DNA of 55,211 nucleotides from Acutalibacteraceae bacterium. Lineage in GTDB: Bacteria > Bacillota > Clostridia > Oscillospirales > Acutalibacteraceae. Of this stretch, positions 1,052-20,875 are shown in pieces. A program made the translations under genes and the position numbers. The stretch's first letter is position 1; every line of letters starts with the position of its first letter. The DNA is taken from contig JAZNWP010000048.1 of NCBI GenBank assembly GCA_045593385.1, positions 1 to 55,211 on the forward strand, written 5' to 3'. Under the pieces are notes generated by a model. The model had not been told where the DNA came from. It ran no database searches and saw nothing but the letters and a program-made list of their open reading frames with translations.

Positions 1052-1065
1052 GGAGGAAAATATTT

Positions 1066-2583: not shown

Positions 2584-2614
2584 TAAATAAAAAGATAAAA
2601 AGGAGATAAAAATT

Positions 2615-3946
2615 ATGGATTTTGAACAAGGTCAATTAATTCAATAGTTAGATGATGGAACTGAAATTAATTATTATCCAAAAACTTTATTTAGTTCAGT
2701 CTATGAAAATGAAAAAGATAATGCTCTTAATTTAAAAGAGTATTTAAATAATTTTAAAATAGAGGATTCGGGTCTAATAAAAATAGGAAAAGATACTGAG
2801 TTAGCTAGCGTAACTTTAATAAAATCATCATTATATGTAAAGCCAGAAAATAGTGGTATTATTTCATATGGTAGAATAGAATTAGATTATCCGATAGAAA
2901 ATGTTGAGGAATTAAGACTATTAAGAATTCCTATTGTTGGGTTAGACGTTTATGAAATTAAGGATTTTGAATTAATAGACAAAAAAATTATTCAATATAA
3001 TTCAAAAGAATATGAATATACCGCCTTAGACATAATTAATGTTTATCAAATAAAATCAAATTCTAAGGGATTAATATCTATTGGAAATGGGACTAAATCT
3101 TTAGGATAGACTCCTTTATCATTTGGAAATTTTATTAAAAATACAGAAAGTATTGTTATAGGAAATTCTAGTACTGGAAAATTTAATTCAATTGCAATTG
3201 GAAATAATTCTTCTTCAGGATTAAATGGTTTGTCAATAGGAAATAATTCTATAAGTGAAAGTTTTAGTATTTTATCTCTTTCAATACCAGGAATTGCCAT
3301 TGGAGATAAAGCTGAAACGGTTGGTGGAATTTCAATCGGATATGGGGCAACAAGTACTTTTGGAAGTGTTTAGCTATCTACTGGAACTAATGAGCAATCT
3401 CAAACTTTAAAATTTATGGAACATTAGATATCAAATGGAACGTCCGTAACTGCTTCTGGGTCAGATATGGCAGAATATTTTGAATGGGAAGATCAAAATA
3501 TTAATAATCAAGACCGAAGAGGGTATTTTGTTACAATAAAAAATAATAAAATATAGCTTGCTACTTCAAAAAGTGATTATATTTTAGGAGTCGTTTCTTC
3601 TGAAGGTATTGCTTCATTTATCGGAAATACTGCGGTAGAAAATTGGAAAAATAAGTATTTAAAGGATATTTATGGAGATTATATTTTAGATGAAAATGGA
3701 GAAAAAATTATAAATCCAGAATTTAAAGAGACTGAAAAATATATTCCAAGAAAAGATAGAAAAGAATGGGCAGTAGTTTGTCTTATTGGATAGATTGTTA
3801 TTAATGATGATGGAACTTGCGTTCCAGGTGAATACTGTAAAGTTAATGATAATGGAGAAGGAACTGCCGCAAATATTGAAGATAATATAAAATATAAAGT
3901 TTTAGAAAGATTAGATAATAATCATATAAGAATTTTATTTAAATAA
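2615..3946 (+). CDS. tail fibre/appendage-like protein, 443 aa, with IGN-rich repeats
   Basis: SD aaaaggag then ATG 2615. Frame 2 is open to TAA 3944-3946 with about 6 in-frame TAG. Repeats IGNGTKSLG/IGNSSTGKFNSIAIGNNSSSGLNGLSIGNNS, then a globular C-terminus. Confidence 0.5.
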
Positions 3947-3952
3947 ATTGTT

Positions 3953-3998
3953 AAAAGCGAAGAAAAATAATAGTATTTTCTTCGCTTCTTTTTTTTAG
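3953..3998 (+). terminator. rho-independent terminator
   Basis: aaagcgaagaaaa / ttttcttcgcttc stem followed by a T9 run directly after the TAA of the preceding gene. Confidence 0.7.
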
Positions 3999-4096
3999 GT
4001 CAAGACTATTTAATATAATAAAGATTATTTTTAAATAAATTAGAAATAAAATATAAAATTTTATTTTAAATAAATAAGTTAGAAAGGAGAAAATAT

Positions 4097-7000: not shown

Positions 7001-9997
7001 AAAGCTATAGAAAGATTTAAAACCATGCATAACTGGGTAGTTTCAACAAAAGATGATATTGATAAATTTAAAAATGAATTTGAGCAATATTTTGATTTAC
7101 ATTATTGTTTGATTTATTACGTTTATACTTTTGTTGCTTTAATGGTAGACCAAAGAGCAAAAAATATGTTTTTAACTTATTGGGGAAAAACTAATAAGTG
7201 GCAACCTTGGTTTTATGACAATGATACTTGTTTTGGTTTAAATAATGTTGGTAAAATGACATATGAATATTATCATGAAGATACTGATAAATATGGAAAT
7301 GGTAATGTATATAATGGTCAAGAAAGCGTATTATGGACTAATTTTAGGGAATGTTTTCCTACTGAAATAAGAGACACTTATGCAAGATTGCGAAGTGAAA
7401 AATTAATTAGTTATAATAATTTCATTGACAGATTTATTGAAAATGGATCAAATAAATGGTCAGAAACTGTCTATAATGAAGATACTGAATATAAATATAT
7501 TTATCCTTTAAAAAGTGAAGAAGATTCTAGCCATCTTACTAAGATTCAAGGAACTGGAGAAGAATACCTTCGTTATTTTATTGATAAAAGATTAAATTAT
7601 TGTGATAGTAAATGGAATTGTGGAGATTATGTAGATGATACTATTGCTTTAAGATTTTATACTCCAGACACTTGGGAAGGTATTGCACCAGATCCGACCA
7701 TTACCGTAACTCCTTTTACAAAAATGTATACTGGAGTTCGATATAAAGCTAATGGAACTCTAAAACAATAGAGAACAGAAGCTGATAAAACTGCAACCTT
7801 CTCTCCAGAATCTTCTGACTATGAAGAAGGGGAATATGAGGGTAAATTTAATGATACTGAAGTAGCGATTTATGGTGCTTCTAATTTATCTTCTATAGGA
7901 GATTTATCTGCTTGTTATTTAGGTTCTATTGACATTGGTAAGGCAGTTCGTTTAACTGAATTAAAAGTTGGTAATTCAACTGAAGGATATTATAATAATT
8001 TATTAAAAGAAGTAAATATTGGTACAAATAAATTATTAAAAAAAGTTGATTTTACTAATTGTGTTGAATTAAGAGGAAACTTAGATTTATCTAATTGTCC
8101 TAATATTGAAGAAATAAAAACTTTTGGAACTAAACTTTCAAGTGTATCTTTATCATCTTCTGGACATATTACTAAATTATATTTACCAGAAACAATTTTT
8201 AATTTAACTTTATCTAATTAGTCTTTTATTGAAGATTTTTAGATTTAGACTTTAAATGATGAATTATCCCCTTATCGAAATTTAAGAGAGATTTTAATTA
8301 TAAATTGTCCAACTATTGATTCTCAAAAAATGTTAGAGGAAATAGTTGATAACTTTTCTTCTGAATATGTGTCAATAAAAACAACTTTATCTGCCCCATC
8401 TGGAGAAAATTTATTAATAAATATATATGCTGATGGAGCCATTACAACAGAAATTTATGATGAACAAACTTCTTCATCTGCAAAAACAATTTATAAATTT
8501 ATTCAGGATCATGGAGATAATTCAACTTCAGAAGATTTAAGATATTTTACAGTTGTTTATAAAGAAGAAAATGATACAATTGTTTTAAACGAAACTTTTT
8601 CTGAATTAATAGCAGCTCTTAATAATAATGATAAAATTTATTTAGGTGGTTTAGAACTTACGAATATTGAACAACAAGGAAAATATTTAGACATAGGATT
8701 TATTAACATAGATTGGGACTTTGAAAATGCAGATTTCTTATTATCTTTATTAGATAATGAGAATATTCGAGGAAAACACCCAGAAACAAATGTTATTGAT
8801 CCAAATATGATTTGGATTACTGGAACTTGTCATATTAAAAAACTTAATGGTGAAGAAATGAAAAAACTTAAATCTAATTATCCAGAAGATTTAAAAATAA
8901 CTTATGATGACCTCACAGCTAATTTAAGTTTTTATTTGGGCGGAGACACCGTAGCAGATGGAGAAAACGCTTATTATCATTATAATTACACAATAGGAGA
9001 TACAATTACTTCTGATGAATATTTAACTTTTAGATAGATTTGGATTGATAATAAAGGTATTGATTGTACACAAGAAAATTTGTCTGAATATTTTACTTTA
9101 ATTTTAGAAGAAAATACAGTAATTTCTGGAACTTGTAAGAAAAATGTAGAAATTATTAGAGATTTATTTATTCCGATCCAAATTGCCGCAACCCAAGAAA
9201 TTTTAAATGGTGGAAATGGATTTAATCCTGTCGGCAAAGAGATTGAAGCTCCTAAAAAAGCTTCAACAGCTAAATACGATTATACTTTTAGTGGTTGGGC
9301 ATATCGTTCAGGAGCAGTGGCTAATGATATTATTTTAAATAATATCGAGCAAAATACTAAAGTTTATGCAACCTTTACTAAAACAATAAAAAAATATCCA
9401 GTATATTTTTATAATGATCCATTAAAAGAAGGGAAAGCACCGATTAAATCATTAATAGGAGATCAAATGATAGCTTATGGAAATGGTGTTCCCACAAATG
9501 AAATACCTCCAAATCCAGAATATCCAGATGAAAGTTTGAAACAAGATTATACTTTTACTGGTTGGGATCCAAATCCAACAAAAATTACTGGAGAAACTCA
9601 TTGTTAGGCACAATATAGTTATACAGCTTATTCTCCTGTTCGTTTAATAGAAAGAGATATTGTTGAATTTAGCAGTAATACTTTAACCGATATTGGAGAT
9701 TATGCTTTTTATAATTGTGCAGAATTAGAAATTGTAAATACACCTTTTGTTTTATCGATTGGTTAGTTTGCTTTTGAAGGGTGTTCTGTTTTAGATACTT
9801 TAATCTTATTAAATAATGAACAAGTTTGTACTCTTGGTACAAATGCTTTAAAAGGAACTTTAATTGAACAAAATAAAGGAAGTATTTATGTCGCAGACAA
9901 TATGGTTGAATTATATCAAAACCATAGTGATTGGAACAATTATAAAGATTATATAAAATCAATTAATGAATTAACTATTTTGGAGGTGAATGAATAA
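4097..9997 (+). CDS. giant multidomain fibre/adhesin-like protein, 1966 aa. Contains a Gly-rich linker, LamG (Laminin_G_3)-like domain, CotH kinase-like domain, LRR region, Listeria-Bacteroides (YxFxGW) repeats and a C-terminal BspA-type LRR. About 25 in-frame TAG.
   Basis: SD gaaaggag then ATG 4097. Frame 2 has no TAA/TGA until TAA 9995-9997. Track ORFs 4529.., 5234.., 7025.., 8330.. and 9080.. are all frame 2 and separated only by TAG. LamG signature ...VTFVVESNAKTPDGEYVTSRLISIYLNGVL... then IDIYNIRAYNRALTSKEI. CotH signature MVDQRAKNMFLTYWGKTNKWQPWFYDNDTCFG. LRR_5-type IGDYAFYNCAELEIVNTPF...FAFEGCSVLDTL. YDYTFSGWAY / DYTFTGWDPNP repeats. Confidence 0.6.
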
Positions 9998-9999
9998 TT

Positions 10000-12162
10000 A
10001 TGGCTAGTAAAATGACTGTTGAAAGAAAAATTTATTATGGTTCAGCTATAGATAAAACTAATGTTGATGGTAGTTTCGGTTTTGGGGCTATATATTGTAT
10101 AGGACATTCAGATTTTTCTTCTACTAGTTCTCACTCAAAAGGAGTAAAAGACAACATTCCTCCTTATTCAATTATTAATTCAACAACTATGGGAGTTGAT
10201 AGTGGTACTATTTCTATTACTACTGACGGATTAGATGGTTCTTATTCTTGGCGGCTCATAATAGAAGCATATTATAGATATGTTACGAGCGAGGGAGACA
10301 ATAGCTCAAAATATTCTGGTTCTTTAGGAAATACCAATAATTTTAGAGAAAGTGGTAATCCAAATTCCTTTTCAAATTTTTCTTCTGTTGTTTCTAAATA
10401 TAAGTATGGAACAGCATCAGATTTTTCGAGTGGTACAGAAAATGCAGGATTATTAAAGGCCTTTGATATAAATAATAGTTATACGAATGAAGAAACAAGT
10501 TCTCTTCGTTTTTATTGGGAAGAAAATGGACTAGGACTGAACGCTTCTGCATTATCAATAAAGAATAGTCAACCTTATATAACTTATGAGATTACTTTAC
10601 CCACAATAACTTTATTATCAAATAATTTAGAAATGGGAACGGTTAATGGGGCAGAAAGTGATAATATTTATAATATAGATGTTTCAAGTTCTTATTCTGT
10701 AACAGCTGAACCAAAGCCTGGATATCGTTTTGTAAAATGGTCAGATGGAAATGAAGAAAGGATAAGAACTTTTACTAAAATGGATTTAACTTCTTCGAAT
10801 ACTGAGATTACAGCAGAATTTATTCCCTATTATACAATATCTTATAATTTAAATGGAGGAAATACTAGTGAAACTAGAATAAATTTTTATGATAGTTTAT
10901 ATGGAGCATTAGATTCTAATTTATCTCCTACAGGAGTTTCTGAAATTATTATACCAACTCCATTAAAAACTGGCTATACTTTTATTGGATGGACGGGAAC
11001 AGATATTGAGGAACCTTCCATGGTTATTAATATTCCTTTAGGCTCTTCTGGAAATCGTACTTATACAGCTAATTGGCAAATTAATCAATATAAAGTTACT
11101 ATTAATTGCTCTCCAGAAGACAGCGGAATTGCAACAATTATTTTAAAAGATGGTACTGAATTTTCTAACAGTTCAAAATTATTAGACTATGGAACTTCTT
11201 TGACTGCAATTTCTGCAACAACTACTGATGTTGATAAGTATGAATTTTCAGAGTTCACTATTACTGGAAAAACACCAAGCTTAAATAATACTTTATATGG
11301 ATAGGTTGTACCAGCATAGGACATTGCTTATATAGCTTATTTTGATTTAAAAAAATATGCTGTAACTGCTTCTTCTGTATTAATTTCTTATGATGAAGAT
11401 GGAAATGAGATTGAAACCCAAGATGATTGCGCAGTTTTTGAATTAAATAATCTAAGTACATTTACGCCATAGGAGTATGGAAAATCAATTTATATTTCAT
11501 TTTTGCCCAAATTTGGATATAAATTTGTAAAATGGAAAAATACTGAAACTTCAAAAATGAATAAAGCAGTATTAGAAACAGTAGTTACTGGCGAAATTAA
11601 AGCAGTCGCTTGTTTTGAAAAAATTGAGCCAACTAATAATTCAATCCCAGATAATGTTGAAAATTTGCCATTAGCAGAAAAAGAAAAATTAATTACCTCA
11701 ATTGCAGATTCAATAATTAATAAAACAATTATTAATTATATTAATACCGTAAAGATGAATTCAATAGGTGATTATATATTTTATAATTGTGATAAATTAA
11801 AGTTTATTAATATCCCAAATGTCAATCCTTCAGCTCTTGGAAGTTATGCATTTTATGGATGTAAAAATTTAACTAGTTTACGACTTCCTGAAAATATTAC
11901 TGAATTAAAAGACCATGCTTTTGAAAATTGTATTAATTTAACTACTTTAATAATTCCAAACTCTTCATTGGTAGAATTAACAGGTCAGGATGTATTTTGG
12001 AATACACCGTTTTGTAATTCATTATATAATCAACCTTTTGGATACATTTATGTTCCAGAAGCTTTAATATCTGATTATAAGACAAGGACAAATTGGGTAT
12101 TATATGCAGAGAGATTTAGACCTATTGAAGAGTATTCGGCAATTTGTGGTGTGGAGGAGTAA
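10000..12162 (+). CDS. receptor-binding-protein-like fibre, 720 aa, with Listeria-Bacteroides repeats and a BspA-type LRR C-terminus; 3 in-frame TAG; merges track ORFs 10000..11304 and 11503..12162
   Basis: SD ggaggtg then ATG 10000, 2 nt after the giant gene's TAA. TAG at 11302, 11320 and 11470, then continuing frame 1 to TAA 12160-12162. Motifs PKPGYRFVKWSDG, KTGYTFIGWTG, PKFGYKFVKWKN and IGDYIFYNCDKLKFINIPN...YAFYGCKNLTSLRLPENITELKDHAFENCINLTTLIIP. Confidence 0.6.
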
Positions 12163-12165
12163 AAA

Positions 12166-12330
12166 ATGATTCAAAAAGAAAATATAGAATTTAATGGAAA
12201 ATTATTTGTCAGAACTTTTAGTGACAAAGGTTTTTATATAACAAGACAGGGTGTTTATTATAAAGAAGCTTATGATCCAATTATGATCTCTAGAGTTTAT
12301 GAAGAAAGTGATAAATTAATTAATAATTAA
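12166..12330 (+). CDS. small hypothetical protein, 54 aa
   Basis: ATG 3 nt after the preceding stop (translationally coupled). Ends TAA 12328-12330, followed by a terminator. Confidence 0.35.
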   Translation: MIQKENIEFNGKLFVRTFSDKGFYITRQGVYYKEAYDPIMISRVYEESDKLINN

Positions 12331-12374
12331 TTCTGGACAGATTTTATTAAAATAAAAAATTAAAAAATTAAATG

Positions 12375-12425
12375 TATAGGAGAAAGAAAAAAAAAATTCT
12401 TTCTCCTATATAATAAAATTTTAAG
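12375..12425 (+). terminator. rho-independent terminator
   Basis: tataggagaaagaa-A10-ttctttctcctata inverted repeat followed by a T-rich tail. Confidence 0.7.
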
Positions 12426-12469
12426 AAAGGATGAATTTTTTTATGATAGTAAAAGTAGATAGTACTAAT

Positions 12470-14806
12470 TTTGAGTAGTATCGTGATTTTTTCGCAGAAG
12501 CTTATAAATATTTAGAAGAAATAGAAGCTGCAGAAAATAGGAATATTATTGCAAACGAAGATCGCTCTGAAGAAAAAACTTTCACTTCTATTGCTCAATA
12601 CTTTAGATATATTGAAGAGTTTAATAACAGTGCAAGAAGAGATTATTTTTTGTTAAAATTACCTTTAGATGAGGGAATGTTTAATATTGATGCTAATACA
12701 AGATTAATTGATATTCCTGCCTCTTTTGTAAAAAGTGCAATTATTCAAAAAGATAAAGTTGCTGAAACTATTATATTTACAATTAATCGTTTTATAGACA
12801 ATGTAGATTTATGTAATGTGGAACGAATTTATGTTCAATGGACCGCGCCAGATGGTAATGGAGGAGTGCGAGAATGGGCAACTCCAGTTGAACTAATTGA
12901 TAGAGAATCAATTGCTGAAAAAATTAAATTTGGTTGGACTATAGATGAAGCTGTAACTTTATATCCTGGAAAAGTATCTTTTGCAGTAACTTTCTTTATT
13001 CCAGACGAAAGTCAAGTTGGAAAAGTTTTATATCGTTTAAATACTCTTCCAGTAAGTTTTGAAGTAAAACCAGCTCTATAGCCAGAAATTAATGCCAATA
13101 GTGTTATTAACCGTCCAGGTAATGCTTTAAATGCAGTAATTCGCAATAATCGCTATCCTGGAGTCGGAGTAAAAGCTCCATTAGTTCCAGATTTTAACGA
13201 TCCAGGTTTAGATCTTCCATCAGATGGTATGTTAATGGGGGAAGGTGCTGGAACCTTAACTTTAAAAGCATAGGCTGTTACGAATGATACTGGAATTATT
13301 AATTATAACTGGTATTTTGTTCCTGCTGAAGGTGGAGCTTATAGATATCGTTGTGGAGAAAAAGAAGTGACTGATAGTGACAATAATATAAATTATAGCT
13401 TTATGTTTAAGCCACAGATTAAGACAGCTACTGGAATTGTTGATAATACTTTATCAGCAATAGATTACAATTTATTAACTAACGATTCTAAAGATTTATT
13501 TGAAAAAATTGACACTGAAGGTAATAATTATAAATTAAAAACATCAACAACAGATGAAGTTGAAGTATTTTATAATAATATTGGAACTGTTGGTACTAGT
13601 TATGAAATAATATCAAATACTGAAACAATAAATCCAAGAGATAAAATATATGTTAAAGATATCGATGGAAGTTTTAAACTTTACACCGCCGAGGATAAAA
13701 AAGAAGAAGAAGAGACGGGAATTCCCTTAACAAAGTATGAAAAATATACATTATTTACTGTAGCTAGCAGTGGAGATGTTGTTGGTGAATATTATGTTGA
13801 AGCTGATAATACTATTAGTCCAAACACAAGTTTATCTCAAGCAAGTACATCTTGTTACCTAGAGGGTCCAGAAGATATTGTGATTTTACCTGAAGGCAAT
13901 TTAGAAAGTAATGTTTTTATTGAAAATCCTTATACATATATTAGAGGAACTAAAATAAGTTAGAGTGAATATGATTTAATTTTAGATTCGGATGAAAAAA
14001 ATAAGTTTACAAAAATAGAAGAAGATGGAAATACTTATTATTCAACTGATACCACCGTAACAGTAACTATTAGAAAAATTAATTTAACATTAGAATTAAG
14101 TCAAGTTAAAAACACAACTTTTACTTATGATTGGTATAGATCTTTAACAGAGCCGCCAGTCGACCTTTCAGAAGATGATGAGTTTGGAACTAAGATACCA
14201 AGCATTTCTGGATCAACTGCTTCAATTTCTGATGTTGGTTGGTATCAAGTAAAAGTTTCTGCAAAAAAGAATAGAAAAGAAAAAAAAGCAAGTAGTATAA
14301 TTTGTAGAGCTCTTCTTAATCCAGTTGCTCCTACATTAAATGTTGTTAAATATGACGAAAATAATCAAGAAAATACTAGTTCAATAGGAACATTTTTTTC
14401 TGCAGAAGATGGAAGTGAAACTTATGTCATTGATGGTAATAAAGATTCTAAAATAAATTTAGTTGTAAATGGATAGATTTTAATTGATGATATTGATAAA
14501 AAGAATGATAAATTGTACTCAGATGGAATTAAATATGAATGGAGAATTTATAATAAAGATAAAGGTGAATTTGAAGTATTAAATACGCTAGATCATGGTA
14601 ATTTAATTCCAAGCGTAGATAATCCAAATTTTGTAGATACTTAGTTTGTTGTAGATGCTTAGGGAAATACATTTTCTTCTCATCCGTCAAAAATTATTTA
14701 CAAATTTGATGGTAATCCAGTATTCATTTCTTGTTTTGCAATAAATACTCTATATAATAAAAATACAGTAAATGAATCTATCGCAGCGTTATTTGAAATT
14801 AAATAA
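12470..14806 (+). CDS. large structural protein, about 778 aa, 6 in-frame TAG; 5' end unresolved (see finding on frame discontinuity)
   Basis: Frame 2 is open from 12452 to TAA 14804-14806 with TAG at 13079, 13271, 13961, 14471, 14642 and 14657. Contains track ORFs 12650.. and 13367... The only SD/ATG (12442) is in frame 1 and hits TGA after 14 codons. First in-frame start candidate is TTG 12470 or ATG 12677. Confidence 0.45.
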
Positions 14807-14833
14807 TTCATCTATCAAGGAGGTTTATAAATT

Positions 14834-15430
14834 ATGATTGCTAAAGAATTAGATTTTCTTTTTCAAATTCAGTCAAAAGTAACTCCTTATTTTGTAGAAT
14901 TGCCAAATGGGAAAAAATCATATAGTATAGATTTACAAACTCGTAAAATAAATTCTCCAGAATTTTTAAGTGTTCAAGAAGATCATTTATCAAATGTAGT
15001 TTATTTTAATGTAGATAGATTTTTTGATTATATGGATTTAAGTACTTTATCTTGTGTAATTATATATCAAACACCAGATGGACAATCTCATATGTATCCA
15101 ATTCCTTATTATGATGTTTATACTTTATCCAAAGAAGGAAAAATGATTTTGCCTTGGAATATTAGTAGCATTGTTACTAAAAATAATGGTATTATAACTT
15201 ATTCTTTTAGATTTTTCAAATTATCTGGAGACACTTTTGATAATTCTGAATTAATATATAATTTAAATACTTTTCCAACAACTAGTAAAATATTATATGG
15301 TTTAGATGCCCCAAATATTGATGATAGTGATGAAGTTAATTCTACTGTTAATACTTTAGAAGAACTAATTACACAGGTAAAAGAGCTTAAAGATACTGGT
15401 TTTACTTGGACTGTTATAAACGATATATAA
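14834..15430 (+). CDS. structural protein, 198 aa, paralogous to the N-terminal domain of the 12470..14806 product
   Basis: SD aaggagg then ATG. Intact ORF with no TAG. Shares IDxxTRxI...RFxDxxDL...IxxQxxxPDG...YxLNTxP motif order with residues about 70-210 of the upstream gene. Confidence 0.6.
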   Translation: MIAKELDFLFQIQSKVTPYFVELPNGKKSYSIDLQTRKINSPEFLSVQEDHLSNVVYFNVDRFFDYMDLSTLSCVIIYQTPDGQSHMYPIPYYDVYTLSKEGKMILPWNISSIVTKNNGIITYSFRFFKLSGDTFDNSELIYNLNTFPTTSKILYGLDAPNIDDSDEVNSTVNTLEELITQVKELKDTGFTWTVINDI

Positions 15431-15433
15431 TAA

Positions 15434-15470
15434 AAAGGGGAGTAAATATTTCTATTCACTCCCTTTTTTA
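15434..15470 (+). terminator. rho-independent terminator (weak stem)
   Basis: gggagt...actccc stem followed by TTTTTTA. Confidence 0.5.
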
Positions 15471-15490
15471 CATAAAGGAGGATTTTTGAT

Positions 15491-15889
15491 ATGGAAAATA
15501 TTAATTGGTTAGAATTATTATATCAAATTTTAGAGGTTTGTATCATCCCTCTCTTGGGAATCCTTACAGCCTTTATTGTAAAATTTATTAAAGTAAAAAG
15601 TAATGAAATTACTATGAAAATAGAAAATGATAAAGTTGATAAATATATTAATATGTTAGAAAACACTATTTCTTCTTGTGTTATTGCAACAAACCAAACT
15701 TATGTTGAAACATTGAAGAATAAAAATGCTTTTACTGCGGAAGCTCAAAGAGAGGCTTTTAATATGACTCTTAATGCGGTTATGGCAGTTTTAACCGAAG
15801 ATGCAAAAGAGTATTTGCGCTCGATATATGGAGATTTAGATACCTATATCACTGCGCAGATTGAGGCTCAAGTTAATTTGAGCAAGTGA
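15491..15889 (+). CDS. holin-like membrane protein (single N-terminal transmembrane segment plus hydrophilic tail; Holin_LLH-like architecture)
   Basis: SD aaggagg then ATG. N-terminal hydrophobic stretch LLYQILEVCIIPLLGILTAFIVKFI followed by an amphipathic charged C-terminus. Position at the end of the structural block. Ends TGA. Confidence 0.4.
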   Translation: MENINWLELLYQILEVCIIPLLGILTAFIVKFIKVKSNEITMKIENDKVDKYINMLENTISSCVIATNQTYVETLKNKNAFTAEAQREAFNMTLNAVMAVLTEDAKEYLRSIYGDLDTYITAQIEAQVNLSK

Positions 15890-15900
15890 GGTAATACCCA

Positions 15901-15940
15901 AAAAATACCGAAAAAGGTATTTTTTGGGCATTTTTTTTTA
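15901..15940 (+). terminator. rho-independent terminator
   Basis: aaaaatacc-gaaaaa-ggtattttt hairpin followed by a T-run (tgggcattttttttt). Confidence 0.65.
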
Positions 15941-16030
15941 CCCAAAAATGGGATAAAATAGATTATTTTGGGTCCTTAAAAGGTTATTTTCTGTGCTTAA
16001 AAAGGTTACTTTTCGTTTAAAAAATGAACT
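15919..16030. repeat. cluster of degenerate direct repeats AAAAGGTWAYTTTY / TTTTGGGYC
   Basis: Copies at about 15921 (cgaaaaaggtatttttt), 15979 (ttaaaaggttattttc) and 16001 (ttaaaaaggttactttt), plus ttttgggca/ttttgggtcc. A GC-rich imperfect palindrome lies at 16030-16075. Sits between the holin gene and the higher-GC cassette. Confidence 0.4.
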
Positions 16031-16162
16031 CGAAGTGGTCCCTAGAAGGTTGGCCTTTGGTCCGCACTAGGACAGTATTCATTAATTTTGCCTTCCTAAT
16101 TTTTACATAGTAATGGAGGGGAATGGATATAAAAATTTTTTGTATGGAAGGAGACCTTACAT

Positions 16163-16582
16163 ATGTATCAAAACTATAATTATTATCCAGGTCAGAACCA
16201 ACAAGTCTCCCAAGCTGCTTATGTGTCGCCGCAAACATACCTACGGCAGGCGCCGCCGCAAGGATTAAAAGGCCGTCCAGTAGCATCATTAGAAGAGGCA
16301 CGTGCAACCTCAATAGATTTTGATGGTTCAGTATTTTACTTTCCTGACATTGCGAACAGACGAATTTATACGAAACAAATTAATATCGATGGCACTGCTA
16401 ACTTGCAAATGTATGAATTGAAAGAATTACCAAAAGAAACAGAGTTGTAGCAAGTCCCCACTGATTAGTTTGTTACTAAAGAAGAGTTTGAAAGGGTATT
16501 GGCGGAGTTACGCCAGAGTCTAGCCGGTTAGACTGCACCTGTCGTTGTCGAGAAACCTAAAACAGAGATACTAGCATTCTGA
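16163..16582 (+). CDS. Pro/Gln-rich hypothetical protein, 139 aa, 3 in-frame TAG, ends TGA
   Basis: SD ggaaggag then ATG. Track ORF 16163..16450 continues in frame through TAG 16448, 16466 and 16529 to TGA 16580-16582, followed by an SD. Higher GC than flanks. Confidence 0.45.
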
Positions 16583-16600
16583 AAGAAGGAGGTATGAATA

Positions 16601-16855
16601 ATGTATCCTGTAGACCCAAATGTATTAATTCAATTAATTAAACAAGGTCAAAACCCTCAACAACTAATGCTAAAAATATTATAGGGTTAGGCCGGAAGCA
16701 ACCCCCTCGTAAATAATCTCCTATCTTTAGCTCAACAAGGTAGAACTACAGAAATTGAACAAGTAGTTCGGAATCTTTACACTCAATAGGGTGGACAAGA
16801 TTTTGACCGCGATTTCGCAGCCTTTAAAAAATCATTAGGCTACGAGACAAAATAA
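16601..16855 (+). CDS. Gln-rich hypothetical protein, 84 aa, 3 in-frame TAG
   Basis: SD gaaggagg 8 nt before ATG 16601. TAG at 16685, 16691 and 16787. TAA 16853-16855. Confidence 0.45.
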
Positions 16856-16882
16856 AACTAAATTTTAAGGAGGACAAAAATT

Positions 16883-17641
16883 ATGTTTAATGGAAAAGGT
16901 TACAATTTATCAGATATTGCTGCTGTAACAGGTCGCAATGGAAATGGTGATGGAATGTTCGGAGACAATGGTTGGTGGATCATTCTGTTATTCTTATTTG
17001 CTGGCTGGGGCCGTGGCTTTGGCGGATTTGGTGGCGGAGGAGTAGAAGGTGTTCCCGCAACTCAAGCTGATGTGCGCGCCGCAGTAGATCAACAGACTTT
17101 AATTTCTAAATTAGATAATCAGACTTATGGATTAGCTGATTCTACTTATGCTCTTAATAATTCTCTTATGAGTGGTTTCCATGGAGTAGATACAGCCATT
17201 TGCACTCTTGGATATAATATGCAAGGTGGTTTTAATACTCTTGGTCATCAGATTAGTGATTGTTGCTGCGAAACTGGTCGTGCCATTGAGCGCGGTTTTG
17301 CAGATACCAATTATAATATGGCTACTCAGGCTTGCGATACTCGTAGAGCAATTGCCGATAGCACAAGAGATATTATTGATGCTAATAATGCTGGTGTTCG
17401 TTCTATTCTTGATTTCTTAACTCAAGATAAGATTGCTGCTTTAACAGCTGAAAATCAAACTTTGAAATTTGCAGCTTCTCAGGCAAATCAGAACGCATTT
17501 ATTACTGCTAACCAAGAAGCTCAGACTGCGGAATTAGTTCGTAGACTTGCAACTCCTTGCCCAGTTCCAGCATATGTAGTTCCCAATCCAAATTGTTGCT
17601 ATAATCAATGCGGATGTGGCAATGGCTTTGGCTCTTTCTAA
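16883..17641 (+). CDS. membrane-anchored Gly/Cys-rich protein, 252 aa, unknown function
   Basis: SD aaggagg then ATG. Intact ORF. TM-like WWIILLFLFAGWG, Gly-rich GFGGFGGGG, cysteine clusters CCCETG and CCYNQCGCGNGFG. Markedly higher GC than the surrounding genome. Confidence 0.55.
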   Translation: MFNGKGYNLSDIAAVTGRNGNGDGMFGDNGWWIILLFLFAGWGRGFGGFGGGGVEGVPATQADVRAAVDQQTLISKLDNQTYGLADSTYALNNSLMSGFHGVDTAICTLGYNMQGGFNTLGHQISDCCCETGRAIERGFADTNYNMATQACDTRRAIADSTRDIIDANNAGVRSILDFLTQDKIAALTAENQTLKFAASQANQNAFITANQEAQTAELVRRLATPCPVPAYVVPNPNCCYNQCGCGNGFGSF

Positions 17642-17663
17642 TTGAATAAGGAGGTTGAATTTT

Positions 17664-18086
17664 ATGGAAATTATTGCTAATGCTTTACAAACTGTAGCAG
17701 CAAATCAAAATGTTTATTTCACAGACACGGTAGTTTGTGGTAATGTTTCCATAAGTCACCGAGATGATAGTGGGTTGGTCACTCTTCGTGGAGTGACCAA
17801 CACTCAATGTAGAGCTCGTTTTAAAGTGACTTTTGGTGGAAATATCGCAGTTCCAACTGGAGAAACTGTAGGTCCTATTCAATTAGCTATTGCCATTGAA
17901 GGAGAACCGGCTTTAGCAACAACTATGATAGTTACTCCAGCCGCAGTAGAACAATTCTTTAATGTTGGCGCAAGTATTTTTATTGATGTGCCTCGTGGTT
18001 GTTGTGCTACTGTTAGTGTAAAAAATACTTCCACTATTCCAGTAGAAGTTCAGAATGCTAATTTAATTATTACTCGTGAAGCATAA
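17664..18086 (+). CDS. hypothetical protein, 140 aa, all-beta, with weak resemblance to exosporium BclA C-terminal (TNF/C1q-like) domains
   Basis: SD aaggagg 9 nt before ATG 17664 (track ORF starts slightly upstream at 17655). C-terminal pattern ...ATVSVKNTSTIPVEVQNANLIITREA resembles ...SLALGTSASIIIEKVA of BclA-CTD. This is a from-memory resemblance only. Confidence 0.4.
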   Translation: MEIIANALQTVAANQNVYFTDTVVCGNVSISHRDDSGLVTLRGVTNTQCRARFKVTFGGNIAVPTGETVGPIQLAIAIEGEPALATTMIVTPAAVEQFFNVGASIFIDVPRGCCATVSVKNTSTIPVEVQNANLIITREA

Positions 18087-18103
18087 GAAGGGAGTGTGAA
18101 GCT

Positions 18104-18739
18104 ATGCATGATAAATTAAAACACATGAAAGAAACTCTTATGTGCGCGGTTGAAATGCAGTTATGTGATCTTAGCGAAGTAGATACCAAAGAACTTGGAG
18201 AAGTAATTGATATGATTAAAGATTTAGAAGAAGCAATCTACTATTGCACAGTCACAGAAGCTATGACAAATCCTCTACAAGAAAAAGAGTGGAAAATGCA
18301 AGAAAATGGCCATCACCAAGAAAATGGTGATAGCCGTATGTATTATGATGGTCCAATGTATAAAATGATGTATGCAGATGATGGGCGTCGTCGTAGATCA
18401 GATGGAACTTTTTATGCTGATAGTGGAAATAGTGCATCTGGAGGCCAGAATTATTCAATGTATTCTGATTCTAATATGAACAGTTCAAATGGAAGAAATT
18501 ATACAAATTCAATGTATAATGATTCTATGAACGGACGTAGTTATAATAGTAGAAGAATGTATATGGAAGCTAAACATTCTCATCAAGATAAATCAGTTTA
18601 GCTTCGAGAATTAGAAAAATATATGCAGGAACTTTCTCAAGATGTAGTCGAAATGATTGAAGATGCGTCTTCTGAGGAAAAGCAATATTTAGAAAAGAAA
18701 ATATCTGCTCTTGCTACTAAGATAGGTCAAATGAAATGA
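18104..18739 (+). CDS. low-complexity N/S/Y/M-rich protein, 211 aa, 1 in-frame TAG, ends TGA
   Basis: Track ORF 18104..18601 ends at TAG 18599. Frame continues (QLRELEKYMQELSQD...KIGQMK) to TGA 18737-18739, overlapping the next ATG (ATGA). Confidence 0.5.
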
Positions 18740-19047
18740 TTATTAATGGATTGCGCTGGCGCGTCCGATTGGTCTCACCAGCGCACCCTCTCTTACTAAC
18801 TCCATGGCGCACACACGCATATGGAGTTTGTGATAAAACAACACAAACAATTTGCATTGATAAGACCCTTTCCCCTCACCATTTAAAAGAAGTCTTATGT
18901 CATGAAATTGTTCATGCTTTTATGTTTAGTTATGGTGTTGATTTATCATATGTAGAAGAAGAAATAGTAGCAGAATTAATTTCAGAATATGGAGAAGATA
19001 TTGTAAAAGAAGCTAATGTCATTTATAATGGCATAAAAATGAAATAA
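18736..19047 (+). CDS. putative HExxH zinc metallopeptidase-like protein, 103 aa
   Basis: HEIVHAF motif. ATG overlaps the upstream TGA. Followed by a strong terminator. Confidence 0.45.
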   Translation: MIINGLRWRVRLVSPAHPLLLTPWRTHAYGVCDKTTQTICIDKTLSPHHLKEVLCHEIVHAFMFSYGVDLSYVEEEIVAELISEYGEDIVKEANVIYNGIKMK

Positions 19048-19098
19048 GGGCTCACTTATGAATATTAAATAAATCATAAGTGAGCCCTTATTTTTTTT
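19046..19098. terminator. bidirectional rho-independent terminator at the convergence of the plus-strand late block and the minus-strand early block
   Basis: Perfect 16-bp inverted repeat aagggctcacttatga / tcataagtgagccctt with a T9 run on plus and an A-run (T-run on minus) on the other side. The TAA of minus gene 19097.. lies in the tail. Confidence 0.75.
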
Positions 19099-19747
19099 AC
19101 TCTCCTATATCAGGAATAACTTCCAATCCTTTTACTTTATTATAATAATCTTCAGCCTATCCATTGCCACCAAGACTATGATATAAGTCATAAAAAGCAA
19201 CAATTTGTTCCCAATCATTTTCAGTAATATATCCTTCTTTTAAATGAGTTCTACAAAGTTGAATAAATCTAAATTTATAAGATTCTCTAATTTTTGTTAA
19301 ATTGTATTCATGCTTTTCAGCTAAATCTTTTAAATGAGCATCAACTTCTTTTTTATCACAATCATGATAATCTTTAACGCTTTTGATTTCTTCTTTAAAT
19401 TTTTCTTCGTCTTCTTTAATGAGGTTTTCGACATTAGAAACATGATTATCAATAATCGATTTAATATTATTCATTTCATCCACTATTGGTTCTAATTCTT
19501 CAAGAATCATTTTTCGCTGAGTTCTTATCCTATCTTCTTCTAGTAGTCTTTCATATTCTTTCTTTTTTTCTTCTGCTTTCTTTTTTTCTTCAGCAATTTT
19601 TTCTTCTGCTATTTTTTTTGCTTGCTCTTCTTTTTCATTCATTTTTTTGTATAAATGCTTAATCCAAAGACCGGCAATAGTAGTTAAAATTGTAGTAATA
19701 ACTGCAATTACAATTTCTAATGTATAAGTTTTAAAGATTTCTTCCAT
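19097..19747 (-). CDS. membrane-anchored coiled-coil protein, 216 aa, 2 in-frame TAG near the C-terminus
   Basis: SD aggggag then ATG 19747. N-terminal TM LEIVIAVITTILTTIAGLWI, Lys/Glu-rich coiled coil. Track ORF stops at TAG 19157-19159 but the frame continues to TAA 19097-19099. Confidence 0.5.
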
Positions 19748-19842: not shown

Positions 19843-20340
19843 TTAATCTGACCAGTCAAATGTATTATTCTGATCTAACTAATATTTTCCAATACAGAAA
19901 GAGTCTGCTTCATCTTCTGTACATTTTAATTCATAATTTTTTAATACATACTATTGAGCTAATTTTTTTTCTTGAGTTCTACCTTTTCCCGCAATTTTGA
20001 AATGAGCCTTCCATTTAATAGGTTGAATTACATAATATTTTATATTTAACTCAGTTAATAATTCATGAACTACTCCAAATGCTTCAGCAAGAATTTTAAA
20101 AGTTGTTATTCCTAATTCTTTATTACCATTAACATCTTGAAGTTGAATATCTTCAAACGCAACTTCATCAATATTATATTCTTGAATTAATTCAATAATT
20201 TTATTTCTTAACTATTCTAGTCTATCACCCAAATCATTTCCAACACAATCAAAATGACTTGTTTTTACATTTACTCCATCTTTAAATACTGAATATCCAG
20301 TAGTATGAGAAGATTGATCTAATGCTAATAAATTAGACAT
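19843..20340 (-). CDS. RuvC-like Holliday-junction resolvase, 165 aa, 3 in-frame TAG
   Basis: Absent from the ORF track because of TAGs. Frame is open from ATG 20340 to TAA 19843-19845. N-terminus MSNLLALDQSSHTTGYSVF (catalytic D plus TGY as in the RuvC LGIDPGxxxTGYGV motif). C-terminal DEADSFCIG acidic motif. Confidence 0.55.
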
Positions 20341-20875
20341 TAGTTGAACCAAATCCTCCGAAGCGTTCTCCTGTTGTAATGTCATCTTCAGTTACGCCAT
20401 AAGGAACGATAATTCCTTGACCAATTGCTTCTCCTTTTGGAATTTGAATATTAAATGGAGATAAATTATAAAGTTGAAGAAAAATTTCTCCTTCATTGTC
20501 TGGATTATTATAATAATCTGCGTCGATAATTCCTACCCCATTAGCGAGCATAATCCAATACTTTAGCGGAGAAGAACTACGAACACTAAGTTGAAGATAT
20601 GTTCCTGGGTCTAATTTACACTTCATGCCAGTAGAAACTAATGTAGGTTTATATTCAGTTTTCTTTGTAAAATCTCCCATATCTTTAAGAGTAAGATATT
20701 CATCATCTTCTATTTTTAACATTTGACTTGCTTCACCAGCAAGGTTAAAAATTGATGGAATTATATAATCTTCTGCGGCGACGAGGTCATATCCTGCTGA
20801 CTACCTAGTCTTACGGATCGGCATAACCAATTCCGCATCATTAGCATATCTACTTACTTTTTCAAATTTTGCCAT
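20333..20875 (-). CDS. dut: dUTP diphosphatase, 180 aa, 1 in-frame TAG
   Basis: Track ORF 20333..20722 extended upstream through TAG 20797-20799 to ATG 20875. Motifs SAGYDL, RSSSPLKY, GIIDADYYNNPDNEGEIF and GERFGGFGSTNV. Confidence 0.8.

Follow-up and report, generated by a model that had tools for sequence, protein, structure and literature searches.

A mobile accessory gene cassette of gut phages encoding a putative hendecad-repeat membrane protein and a stand-alone C1q/TNF-like domain

Examples of phage morons and conversion cassettes are the genes that Gram-positive prophages carry between their lysis module and attP, and bor and lom of phage lambda. The DNA pilot protein H of phiX174 is an essential virion protein in which a Gly-rich hydrophobic N-terminal region is combined with a helix of 11-residue periodicity. 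Spore coat and exosporium proteins have Cys-rich, Tyr-rich or Gln-rich compositions comparable to those of several products described here. Their genes form a six-gene cassette at positions 16163-19047 of a 55,211-nucleotide stretch of phage DNA, which was analysed as a whole (the window). The cassette is very probably one copy of a mobile, dispensable accessory operon of gut phages; the best reading places it outside the core virion and replication machinery. Along the window, the cassette and its flanks comprise:

15491..15889, + strand: holin gene, the last of the late operon and outside the cassette (phrog_13712 holin, E 1.1e-34)
15897..15928, + strand: predicted intrinsic terminator ending the late operon before the cassette, a 13-pair stem followed by CATTTTTTTT
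15975..16012, + strand: CTTAAAAGGTTAYTTT twice, 22 nt apart, in the leader; candidate operator or promoter element
16094..16129, + strand: leader motif TCCTAA-N-TTA.A...GAGGGG..TGGATA, about 35-70 nt 5' of the P1 start
16163..16582, + strand: P1, 139 aa (phrog_21718, E 1.4e-8)
16601..16855, + strand: P2, 84 aa, Q/L/N-rich (15% Q), helical
16883..17641, + strand: P3, 252 aa, invariant core of the module (phrog_16490, E 2e-61)
17664..18086, + strand: P4, 140 aa, by fold comparison a stand-alone C1q/TNF-like beta jelly roll
18104..18739, + strand: P5, 211 aa, helical ends around a S/N/M/Y/G/D/R-rich centre of about 110 aa
18736..19047, + strand: P6, 103 aa, minimal HExxH metallopeptidase-like protein (phrog_1233, E 6.7e-15)
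19041..19094, unstranded: perfect 21-bp hairpin between an A-run and a T-run, a predicted bidirectional terminator between the cassette and a convergent reverse-strand block

With TAG read as a sense codon the six co-oriented genes are tightly packed and lie exactly where the initial annotation had put them. They are spaced by 17-27 nt, and P5 and P6 share 4 nt; P6 is therefore probably translationally coupled. We counted seven in-frame TAG codons, three each in P1 and P2 and one in P5, with none in P3, P4 and P6. This agrees with the initial annotation, which had seen TAG in three of the six genes (16163.., 16601.., 18104..), and because of these seven codons its view that the cassette is adapted to the phage code is correct. 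Its descriptions of single products were likewise borne out. The two Q-rich small proteins are P1 (11% Q) and P2, the N/S/Y/M-rich protein is P5 (residues 55-165: S 14%, N 12%, M 10%, Y 10%), and the HEIVH motif of the metallopeptidase-like protein was located at residues 56-60 of P6. The cassette products match PHROGs 16490, 20016 and 21718, i.e. conserved phage proteins. None of the six reached a Pfam or NCBIfam threshold, with P3 and P6 scoring only below cut-off, and none matched PADLOC; in these three resources no toxin, adhesin or defence domain was recognisable. None of the annotated homologues gives a function. GXX repeats are absent from all six products.

The cassette is bounded on both sides. 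The holin upstream has one strong hydrophobic segment (residues 12-30) and is followed by the predicted late-operon terminator; an equivalent stem-loop and T-run is located at the same place in two relatives, L006 and L009. At the other end, the 21-bp hairpin has a minimum free energy of -33.5 kcal/mol (z-score -7.9), and none of 200 shuffled sequences folded as well. Spurious microRNA-like Rfam matches at 19031-19106 are due to this hairpin. By its sequence signals the cassette is probably its own transcription unit, insulated by predicted terminators on both sides. In the leader, the CTTAAAAGGTTAYTTT pair is possibly an operator or promoter element; two matches compare with 0.57 expected, two or more were obtained in 11 of 100 shuffles, and the repeat is not kept in L006 or L009. 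The leader motif at 16094..16129 is kept in the window and in both relatives despite divergent surrounding intergenic sequence. It has no Rfam family and is a candidate promoter or 5' UTR element. Sigma-70-like sites were at chance level in our scan and a promoter can thus not be assigned.

The initial annotation had called the genes GC-richer than their surroundings of about 30%, with 16163-16320 near 45%. This was confirmed: the cassette has a GC content of 0.376 compared with 0.309 for the whole window, no non-overlapping segment of the same length reaches this value (s.d. 0.024), and 16163-16320 measures 0.462. Per-gene GC exceeds that of the late block (Mann-Whitney p=0.0012) and of the reverse block (p=0.0011). 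What drives this rise? The coding GC observed was 0.380; encoding the same proteins with the codon usage found in the rest of the genes would give 0.358. About two-thirds of the GC excess is due to amino-acid composition, i.e. to the content of Ala, Gly, Arg, Gln and Pro. GC3 reaches 0.24; the late genes next to the cassette have 0.125 (p=0.0012) and the reverse-strand genes 0.205 (p=0.043). A distinct composition thus stands for GC and GC3; the GC excess is, however, mostly driven by amino acids, and GC3 is marginal against the reverse block. One might then argue that these are ordinary conserved late genes in which the GC rise is an amino-acid by-product. The predicted 0.358, the barely elevated GC3 relative to the reverse-strand genes, the synteny of the cassette across several related jumbo-phage contigs and the use of in-frame TAG, which shows long residence in the recoded genome, would agree. 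Yet the block is the GC-richest 2.9 kb of the window, its GC3 is double that of the adjoining late genes, it is bounded by its own terminators, it occurs at other positions in unrelated backbones, and it is missing from a syntenic relative. We consider this reading hardly tenable. It is largely refuted by the absence of the cassette from phages L092 and Montmirail.

In L092, a 169-kb TAG-recoded relative, all six genes are missing: only 50 nt past the holin gene begins the counterpart of the reverse-strand replication block, with homologues of the gene at 19097.., the RuvC-like gene, dUTPase, NrdG, NrdD and PolIII. Similarly, Blautia phage Montmirail has, in this order, a gp7-like minor head protein, a 40-aa open reading frame, scaffold and major capsid protein (MCP) without the module, whereas the module occupies the gp7/scaffold junction in Dulem virus 35, whose gp7 is 57% identical, and in seven further loci. 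In Dulem virus 35 the lysis genes form a cassette of their own at a different site in the genome. The presence or absence of the cassette is therefore polymorphic in two unrelated phage backbones. The spread is large and takes in thousands of gut phages. P3 and P4 each have more than 8000 homologue clusters, and the module was found in 266 GTDB species genomes, nearly all Clostridia, and on at least 546 IMG/VR contigs. In 89 loci a colinear order is kept, P1-(P2|c6)-P3-(P4|c7)-(P5|c27)-(P6|c10), in which alternative families share a slot. Carrier hosts are overwhelmingly Clostridia, including C. perfringens, and most are Gram-positive. Full-length P3 also occurs in Crassvirales and in the cultured Bacteroides uniformis phage C3_41T2LP (HMM E 8e-31 and 2e-36), accompanied by a DUF7841 protein (E 5e-16) and an HExxH protein. 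At least three carriers are in culture, C3_41T2LP and the C. perfringens phages CPD1 and XP41-N3.

The position of the module varies. In Crassvirales and Dulem-like siphophages it lies between packaging (terS) or minor-head (gp7-like) genes and scaffold/MCP; in CPD1 and XP41-N3 its neighbours are antirepressor and recombination genes, and it lies apart from the structural genes. In temperate Clostridia phages the module is preceded by an open reading frame that, in seven of nine cases tested, encodes a canonical endolysin, and integrase and repressor genes are located downstream. Some phages carry an XhlA-like gene (c19, phrog_937, E 4e-15) alongside the module. Taken with the own terminators, the distinct composition and the presence/absence polymorphism, the slot between endolysin and integrase lends good support to the initial proposal of a moron-like accessory cassette. 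The converse suspicion, that homologues would reveal ordinary conserved virion proteins, was half right. These are conserved phage proteins according to the PHROGs and the cluster numbers; they do not belong to the ordinary core set of virion proteins, since virions are also made by close relatives that lack them.

P3 is the sole product of the cassette with a strong N-terminal hydrophobic segment. An acidic N-tail of about 30 residues precedes a lone hydrophobic segment (31-43) and a Gly-rich linker; a helix of about 14 hendecads (70-223) and a Pro/Cys-rich tail (224-252) follow. The protein has ten Cys in total and contains WWIILLFLFAGWG, GFGGFGGGG, a CCC triplet at residues 127-129 and a CCYNQCGCG tail. 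The CCC/CC/CGCG clusters and GFGGFGGGG noted at the outset for the predicted membrane-anchored protein at 16883..17641 are thus present, as is a hydrophobic segment. C107, C127-129 and C151 are in register with the hendecads. Residues invariant among homologues include CCC, C151, Y144, W32, W42 and P.PAY..P. An AF2 model showed a single long helix from 70 to 223 with pLDDT 70-84, at low overall confidence (pLDDT 59.6, pTM 0.22). The hydrophobic periodicity of 3.65 residues was reached by only ten of 1000 shuffles and came out as the strongest period for 36 of the 57 homologues. In 84 homologues the N-tail has on average 3.6 Asp/Glu and 1.3 Lys/Arg; the charges flanking the hydrophobic segment are weak on both sides. 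Between the window and L006/L009 P3 is 85-88% identical in phages whose NrdD share 43-45%, and it is better conserved than the neighbouring NrdD, NrdG and dUTPase. The ratio dN/dS was 0.05-0.07, with dS saturated at or above 1. As judged from these comparisons P3 is under unusually strong purifying selection. Conservation above that of NrdD, NrdG and dUTPase argues for a precise, important interaction, probably with the bacterial membrane. Sequence and profile searches of the PDB gave no relative of P3.

P4 was modelled as a compact monomer, a beta jelly roll of ten strands and about 130-140 residues, in which a GCC doublet (C113-C114) is conserved. Its best structural matches are spore proteins, the C-terminal domains (CTD) of F-BclA and BclA, and ExsFA; the fold also matches phage tail-fibre tips and PRD1 P5. 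The all-beta, BclA-C-terminal-like character initially assigned to 17664..18086 is therefore right at the level of fold. By sequence, P4 had no Pfam or NCBIfam match at E<=0.1, and phmmer against the PDB returned nothing below E 0.18. In other phages its slot is taken by c7, an unrelated Cys-rich beta protein.

The remaining products are less uniform. P1 starts with a Q/Y/P/N-rich N-terminus (residues 1-37: 22% Q, 16% Y), continues with a conserved domain of about 55 residues (RPVASLEEA...IYTK...G) and ends in an amphipathic helix. It is present in 77 of the 89 P3-bearing loci, every time upstream of P3. Among 1.84 billion representatives it matched 837 stand-alone clusters and no domain fusions, and it has no relative in Pfam, NCBIfam or the PDB. 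P2 has no Pfam match and shares its slot with an alternative, the M/Q-rich family c6 (phrog_22984). P5 occurs in about 61 of the 89 loci and is replaced in other modules by c27, an R/D/Y-rich protein with DUF7841 (E 4e-21). P6 occurs in 28 of the 89, and its HExxH motif, preceded by a G..D....I.I strand pattern, is retained in 22 family members. Its Pfam scores remained under the curated cut-offs (DUF6782 23.5/27, Peptidase_M78 21.8/22, SprT 17.8/25.6 bits). The P6 HMM finds a HELGH protein of C3_41T2LP (E 8e-5), which its depositors labelled 'PolyVal metallopeptidase superfamily'.

How might these proteins operate together? As a model, and with less than even confidence, we propose that they form a membrane-tethered stalk-and-head complex acting on the cell envelope. 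P3 would insert into the cytoplasmic membrane via its single hydrophobic Gly-rich segment. About 150 residues of 11-residue repeats would then oligomerise into a straight helical stalk, estimated at about 23 nm (154 residues at 1.5 Å per residue). The Cys ladder, which is in register with the repeats, and the tip rich in Pro and Cys would either cross-link the stalk or bind metal. The stalk would most likely extend from the cytoplasmic face of the membrane because P1, P2, P4, P5 and P6 have neither a signal peptide, a signal-like hydrophobic N-terminus nor a transmembrane segment, and because the N-tail of P3 is short and acidic. P4, which is presumably trimeric, would assemble on the stalk together with P1, P2 and P5, all three of low complexity, and one of these four may be processed by P6, the small HExxH protein. 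The envelope of the infected cell would be the target of the complex at a late stage of infection, possibly for exclusion of other phages, or for control or assistance of lysis and release. Some points speak against this model. An operon of six genes would be remarkably complex for superinfection exclusion, and the conservation of P3 goes far beyond what lysis proteins normally show. Phage fibres commonly end in TNF-like domains. The explanation as a whole, i.e. a mobile accessory operon which encodes a membrane-anchored stalk-and-head complex, falls somewhat short of an even chance in our judgement.

In two lineages the module is located between packaging or minor-head genes and scaffold/MCP; therefore a head-associated protein would also fit. 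The cassette might encode dispensable virion components, which we regard as possible, yet doubtful. First, P3 could be the coiled-coil stalk and P4 the trimeric head of a decoration fibre or spike, as in phi29 head fibres, PRD1 P5 or SPP1 gp12. Second, P3 could be packaged as a pilot or ejection protein, similar to the tube of phiX174 H, with P2 as a chaperone of its hydrophobic segment. The module ends the structural block here, the P4 fold matches PRD1 P5 and the tips of phage tail fibres, P3 joins a hendecad helix to a hydrophobic, Gly-rich N-terminal region as phiX174 H does, and the Crassvirales homologues of P3 were deposited as 'spike protein/glycoprotein' or 'viral fiber'. Moreover, decoration proteins are often optional, which fits the presence/absence pattern. 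However, a genuine hydrophobic anchor is atypical of decoration proteins, and the absence of the module from relatives is at odds with an ejection protein, which would normally be essential. Nor does its position outside the structural genes in CPD1 and XP41-N3, or after the endolysin and beside the integrase in temperate Clostridia phages, suit a virion protein. The 'spike' annotations carry no stated evidence, and sequence searches of the PDB gave no relative.

The structural matches of P4 raise another question, namely whether these are conversion genes for BclA/ExsFA-like coat proteins which remodel the spores of Clostridia hosts. Cys-rich P3, Tyr/Arg/Asp-rich P5 and c27 and Gln-rich P1 and P2 recall coat and exosporium proteins, the hosts are overwhelmingly Clostridia including C. 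perfringens, and the slot in temperate phages is typical of lysogenic-conversion genes. The spore flavour is weakened because P3 with its DUF7841 and HExxH partners is found in Crassvirales and a B. uniformis phage, and Bacteroides do not sporulate. Several host genera listed, Subdoligranulum, Agathobaculum and Butyricicoccus, are not known spore formers. Furthermore, the copy studied here resides in a large TAG-recoded phage with no integrase seen within the window, and its products have neither collagen-like repeats nor a Pfam match to BclA_C, C1q, DUF4183, DUF3992 or CotY/Z. A spore-specific role is unlikely, and spore remodelling as an account of the whole cassette is very improbable.

If the reading as a mobile accessory operon is true, the module is among the most widespread gut-phage gene modules without an assigned function, spread over thousands of protein clusters, over prophages of at least 266 Clostridia species, and over Crassvirales and large recoded phages. 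Being compact, dispensable and present in cultured phages it is directly testable. P4 offers a clear case of a C1q/TNF-like phage protein that is not linked to a fibre, and P3 one of a putative hendecad-repeat membrane protein with a Cys ladder. More speculatively, and with rather low probability, the P3 module may represent a previously unrecognised membrane apparatus of Bacillota and Bacteroidota phages. A hendecad barrel or stalk in the cytoplasmic membrane, lined or clamped by the Cys ladder, would carry a C1q/TNF-like trimer as a cap, a metalloprotease and low-complexity partners, and might act as a new conduit, fusogen or exclusion device independent of the type of host envelope.

How does the cassette relate to known systems? 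With BclA CTD (1wck), the F-BclA tip (9h38) and ExsFA/BxpB (7r1m) P4 shares just 9-18% identity. In contrast to BclA-type proteins it is a bare domain of 140 residues without a collagen-like region or an exosporium-targeting N-terminus. Unlike BclA, F-BclA and ExsFA it is phage-encoded, and its module also occurs in phages of non-sporulating hosts; the restriction to spore-formers of the exosporium nap/BclA-ExsFA-ExsY system is not shared by the set of P3, DUF7841 and HExxH proteins. P6 has the HExxH motif in common with ImmA/IrrE (M78), SprT-like, DUF6782 and PolyVal domains, but, in contrast to ImmA/IrrE-type systems, this 103-residue protein has no partner repressor gene. Like the spanins (lambda Rz/Rz1) and XhlA, P3 has a putative N-terminal membrane anchor, a long helix with conserved Cys and a Pro-rich end, and the module often adjoins holin or endolysin genes. 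However, an outer membrane is lacking in most hosts, which are Gram-positive, no + strand open reading frame of at least 25 aa with a lipobox was found in 15890-19100, i.e. no outer-membrane lipoprotein partner, and P3 is conserved far more than is usual for lysis proteins. With phiX174 H P3 shares a Gly-rich hydrophobic N-segment followed by a long Gln/Asn/Thr/Arg-rich helix of 11-residue periodicity. The P3 profile found no H/VP2-type chain in the PDB and no pilot protein in Pfam or PHROG; a Cys ladder and a Pro/Cys tail set P3 apart, and H is essential whereas the P3 module is dispensable. Like phage morons, the cassette is independently terminated, located at module junctions, compositionally distinct and variably present, and like conversion cassettes it lies between endolysin and integrase genes in temperate Clostridia phages. 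It differs from morons in that it consists of six co-adapted genes instead of one, is kept as a colinear module by hundreds of phage lineages infecting hosts of two phyla, and is carried also by large, apparently virulent recoded phages and by Crassvirales.

The phage reads TAG as a sense codon. GC content of the window was 30.9%, and when TAA and TGA alone were taken as stops, both strands showed long ORFs, most of them with in-frame TAG; replication genes were affected as well as late genes (5 such codons in NrdD, 3 in the RuvC-like gene). Because tRNA genes were absent from the 55-kb window, yet TAG is sense throughout, a suppressor tRNA must be encoded elsewhere on the phage genome. Near-identical and related contigs reach up to 150-199 kb; thus the window comes from a phage with a large genome. 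The following features were identified:

758-15889, + strand: late block with large fibre-like proteins, the holin gene being last
15491-15889, + strand: holin gene (phrog_13712, E 1e-34), which closes the late block
15897-15928, + strand: strong predicted intrinsic terminator (13-pair stem and T-run) directly 3' of the holin gene
16094-16129, + strand: leader motif TCCTAA...TTA.A...GAGGGG..TGGATA within a 230-nt leader
16163-16582, + strand: P1, in which an N-terminus rich in Q, Y, P and N precedes a conserved ~55-aa domain and a C-terminal helix
16601-16855, + strand: P2, a small helical protein
16883-17641, + strand: P3, with a hydrophobic segment and a long predicted helix
17664-18086, + strand: P4, an all-beta protein
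18104-18739, + strand: P5, with a low-complexity centre, in which S, N, M, Y, G, D and R abound, between helical ends
18736-19047, + strand: P6, a minimal HExxH protein
19041-19094, no strand: predicted bidirectional terminator, a perfect 21-bp hairpin with A- and T-runs on either side
from 19097, - strand: reverse block with a RuvC-like protein, dUTPase, NrdG, NrdD, guanylate kinase and DNA polymerase III alpha

One fibre-like protein of the late block has a pre-neck-appendage-like C-terminus (phrog_4775). Among cultured phages, the DNA polymerase III alpha was nearest to that of SPbeta-like Bacillus phages (40% identity). The first gene of the reverse block (19097-19747, -) codes for a protein with a transmembrane segment at the N-terminus, a coiled coil rich in K and E and a conserved domain at the C-terminus, and corresponds to phrog_4257 and phrog_4105, to which PHROGs assigns no function. 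The RuvC-like and dUTPase genes (19843-20385 and 20333-20875, -) overlap by 53 nt if each is taken to start at its first ATG; translation of the downstream gene may in fact start further in.

P1 to P6 form a compact cassette of six co-oriented genes, as initially annotated; 17-27 nt separate neighbouring genes, except that P5 and P6 overlap by 4 nt. In-frame TAG was present in the three genes for which it had been reported (3 in P1, 3 in P2, 1 in P5). The cassette had been described as GC-richer than its surroundings, near 45% at 16163-16320. We measured 46.2% in that stretch and 37.6% for the cassette, a value which no non-overlapping window of the same length attained (S.D. 2.4%). Per-gene GC exceeded that of each flanking gene set (Mann-Whitney, p ~0.001 each). 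The distinction was partial, however. Coding GC was 38.0% compared to 35.8% predicted from the amino acids and the codon usage of the other genes, i.e. the excess was largely driven by amino acids, with Ala, Gly, Arg, Gln, Met and Cys enriched. GC3 was 0.24. The late genes next to the cassette had half this value (0.125, p=0.0012), but the reverse-strand genes were only a little lower (0.205, p=0.043), and relative synonymous codon usage correlated with r 0.88 to the reverse block and r 0.82 to the late block. Of the Gln codons, TAG accounted for 12% in the cassette, against 33% among the late genes and 14% among the reverse-strand genes. With those shares, and with a very low GC3 of 0.09-0.14 in the late + strand genes (758-15430) and a GC3 of 0.13-0.31 in the reverse-strand genes (19097-55000), the two blocks look like two codon-usage regimes inside one phage.

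Is the cassette then nothing special, its features a by-product of composition? The terminators on both flanks argue against this. A stem-loop with a T-run is present at the position matching 15897-15928 in two large recoded relatives, L006 and L009, and the leader motif is retained there despite diverged flanks. It matched no Rfam family, and sigma-70-like sites occurred at chance frequency only, so that no promoter was assignable. The hairpin at 19041-19094 (-33.5 kcal/mol, z -7.9) divides the cassette from the convergent reverse block; Rfam matches at 19031-19106 were rejected as merely this hairpin. GC skew flips its sign exactly at the convergent junction (~19070), coincident with the 21-bp terminator, and cumulative skew has its maximum near 19 kb.

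The by-product view is also contradicted by presence and absence in relatives, and we consider it scarcely credible. In the 169-kb TAG-recoded contig L092 (IMG/VR UViG_3300031992_000016), whose holin is 50% identical to that of the window, homologues of the 19097 gene, RuvC-like protein, dUTPase, NrdG, NrdD and PolIII start 50 nt past the holin gene; homologues of P1-P6 were absent from this junction. In Dulem virus 35 and seven other loci, the module follows a minor head gene like that of SPP1 gp7 and precedes the genes for scaffold and major capsid protein (MCP). In the cultured Blautia phage Montmirail, with a gp7 57% identical to that of Dulem virus 35, gp7 is followed by a 40-aa ORF, scaffold and MCP, and the module is absent between gp7 and scaffold. 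These two independent comparisons show that the cassette is optional. Since L092 and Montmirail do without the module, its products are not needed to build those virions.

The module is extremely common. P3 and P4 each had at least ~8000 homologue clusters (90% identity clustering); a second search with a mixed P3 alignment recovered the same narrow clade and no extra diversity. P3 relatives occurred in 266 genomes (one per GTDB species), nearly all of them gut Clostridia (Lachnospiraceae, Oscillospiraceae, Acutalibacteraceae, Enterocloster, Blautia, Dorea, Agathobaculum, Anaerotruncus colihominis DSM 17241) with a few Bacilli or Erysipelotrichaceae, and in at least 546 IMG/VR contigs. A plasmid search yielded almost nothing. 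MT838220 and similar contigs were rejected as complete small viruses; they are linear, unverified scaffold fragments.

ORFs were called in 89 loci and clustered after jackhmmer searches. This gave a colinear module, [c9 TM protein][c11/c12 small HTH][c5] P1 (P2|c6) P3 (P4|c7) (P5|c27) (P6|c10), in which c numbers denote protein families and bars alternative fillers of a slot. P1 was present in 77 loci, P4 in 47, P5 in ~61 and P6 in 28. With hhalign, no homology was detected between P4 and c7, P5 and c27 or c10, and P6 and c10; P2 and c6 are both small, helical and Q-rich or M/Q-rich. The 837 clusters of P1 relatives were all small stand-alone proteins, so a Rosetta-stone search for domain fusions gave none. 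The c5 protein (~128 aa; loci L010-L089, e.g. L027 995-1381), directly 5' of P1 in 34 loci and not encoded in the window, has an invariant Asp-Cys, His and Asp in what may be a papain-like or transglutaminase-like pattern; it is phrog_3754 of unknown function, and PDB and Pfam searches found no relative.

The position of the module depends on the lineage. In large recoded phages (L006, L009, L012, L013, L061) it follows the holin gene; temperate phages have it downstream of a canonical endolysin, with integrase and repressor genes in reverse orientation on its other side. The Dulem-like lineage carries it between head genes, and in the C. perfringens phages XP41-N3 and CPD1 its neighbours are antirepressor and recombination genes. 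CPD1 has tandem P3-like genes (L090 6185-7432; CPD1_038 and CPD1_039, 207 and 205 aa), the related XP41-N3 has one. L012 (CALCFD010000051.1, 148 kb, bin Eubacterium sp.) and L013 (CALWOP010000177.1, 149 kb, bin Oscillospiraceae) are contigs from GTDB genome bins and members of the TAG-recoded large-phage lineage; P3 is split in the standard code, and holin-cassette-dUTPase synteny is kept. They are a weak clue to the host and an example of phage contigs binned with bacteria. Canonical endolysins (GH25, M23+SLH, Amidase_2 or CHAP+CW_7) were identified in 7/9 upstream ORFs tested in temperate carriers. A role as the phage's lysis system was rejected because of these endolysins just upstream; it is also contradicted by a separate lysis cassette in Dulem virus 35.

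Pfam, NCBIfam and PADLOC scans of the six products and the alternative module proteins returned nothing above threshold except DUF7841, which was found only in c27 and one protein of a Bacteroides phage. P1-P5 belong to no curated family, and PHROGs lists P1, P3 and P4 as 'unknown function'. P6 resembles DUF6782, M78 and SprT below threshold and matches phrog_1233. A description of the module was not found in the literature. We are confident that the cassette is a mobile and dispensable accessory operon, insulated by predicted terminators, a copy of a very widespread gut-phage module not described before.

P3 starts with an acidic tail of ~32 aa (mean 3.6 Asp/Glu and 1.3 Lys/Arg in 84 homologues) and a single hydrophobic segment which runs into a Gly-rich linker. 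In an AF2 model, weak overall (pLDDT 59.6, pTM 0.22), residues 70-223 form one long helix (pLDDT 70-84) with disordered ends. Its hydrophobic periodicity of 3.65 residues was reached by 10/1000 shuffles and was best in 36/57 homologues. Written in rows of 11, the helix comprises 14 hendecads, and 22-residue repeats place C107, C128/129 and C151 in register. The CCC motif, C151, Y144, W32, W42 and P.PAY..P are invariant in homologues of 33-99% identity. Compared to L006 and L009, P3 was 85-88% identical by tblastn and 89-92% by global alignment, NrdD 43-45%, NrdG 59-63%, dUTPase 58-66%, holin 56-61% and the other cassette proteins 43-71%. By Nei-Gojobori, P3 had dN 0.07-0.09, dS at least 1 (saturated) and dN/dS 0.05-0.07; for the holin and the other cassette genes dN/dS was 0.15-0.32. 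Because synonymous sites were saturated, the conservation of P3 reflects purifying selection, and recent horizontal transfer was rejected as its cause. In L012, L013 and L061 a P3 allele of 41-48% identity with extra repeats stands next to a P4 of 64-66% identity.

PDB sequence and profile searches found no relatives of P1, P3, P4, c5 and c7. The predicted structure of P4 did have matches:

Structure matches of P4 (protein, entry, score)
F-BclA tip domain, 9h38, 16.4
Ectodysplasin (EDA), 1rj7, 15.3
BclA CTD (18% identity), 1wck, 15.3
ExsFA, 7r1m, 14.1
C1q, 6z6v, 13.6
Cyanophage tail-fibre tips, 9k09 and 8ke9, about 13
PRD1 P5, 1yq5, 10

P4, whose modelled fold is of the C1q/TNF type, represents a new sequence family of that fold, and the BclA-like character initially assigned to it was confirmed at this level. 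BFVD contains stand-alone proteins of this fold (~135-145 aa) from gut sipho-, myo- and podo-type metagenomic phages. The BclA matches raise the question of a role at the spore surface. Spore F-ENA fibres are defined by DUF4183 (PMC12357932). Membership in F-ENA/DUF4183 or Ena was rejected, as the Pfam search was without matches and DUF4183 is not in the cassette.

A spore-surface role is made very improbable by homologues in Bacteroides phages. Many Crassvirales (cr116_1, cr52_1, cr1_1, cr53_1, cr115_1, cr125_1, cr271-273, cr4_1, cr10_1, csAssE-Sib) have full-length P3 homologues, and so does the cultured phage C3_41T2LP of Bacteroides uniformis (HMM E 8e-31 and 2e-36). They keep the hydrophobic Gly-rich segment, CCC, the P.PAY motif and the Cys tail; depositors named them 'spike protein/glycoprotein' or 'viral fiber', evidence unstated. 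P3 is followed there by genes for a Cys-containing beta-rich protein, a beta domain with coiled coil and an R/D/Y/E-rich protein of ~75 aa, then in C3_41T2LP by a DUF7841 protein (E 5e-16), with the same domain as in c27 of the Clostridia modules, and a terminal HExxH protein (P6 HMM, E 8e-5); in cr116_1 the HExxH protein itself takes the DUF7841 slot. With hhalign, no homology was detected between P1 or P4 and their positional counterparts, and the other companions of P3 likewise showed none to P1 or P4. The cr116_1 module has terS on one side and scaffold/MCP on the other and lies ~1 kb past the holin and L,D-carboxypeptidase genes; an additional HExxH ORF (HECLH, 115 aa, 'VOG3488'; L094 2066-2413) directly precedes the P3 homologue. 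Since Bacteroides form no spores and their envelope is Gram-negative, a general function specific for spores or walls is unlikely.

What might the products do? Tentatively, sequence and models suggest a membrane-anchored P3 stalk with a P4 head which acts on the envelope of the infected cell. P3 would anchor in the membrane and oligomerise into a straight hendecad stalk of ~23 nm (estimated from 154 residues at 1.5 Å each); the Cys ladder and the Pro/Cys tip may cross-link the stalk or bind metal. In the other cassette products hydrophobic N-terminal segments were absent, as were lipobox ORFs in the cassette. These partners have no export signals and P3 begins with a short, acidic tail, so that the stalk would probably be on the cytoplasmic side. 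In that place it would carry the P4 head and the low-complexity partners, and the complex could act late on the envelope, in exclusion of other phages or in modulation of lysis. As the main alternative, the module may specify a fibre of the virion that is dispensable, or a pilot-like protein that is packaged, in line with its position inside the head module of some lineages and with P4 having a fibre-tip fold. The putative membrane anchor of P3, the dispensability, and the location outside structural genes in temperate phages and those of C. perfringens speak against it, and we regard this as rather unlikely. The likeness of P3 to the phiX174 H protein and to i-spanins is one of general layout only. 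We see the finding as an accessory operon of phages whose proposed head protein is C1q-like, and the odds that the P3 apparatus is of a new kind are not negligible.
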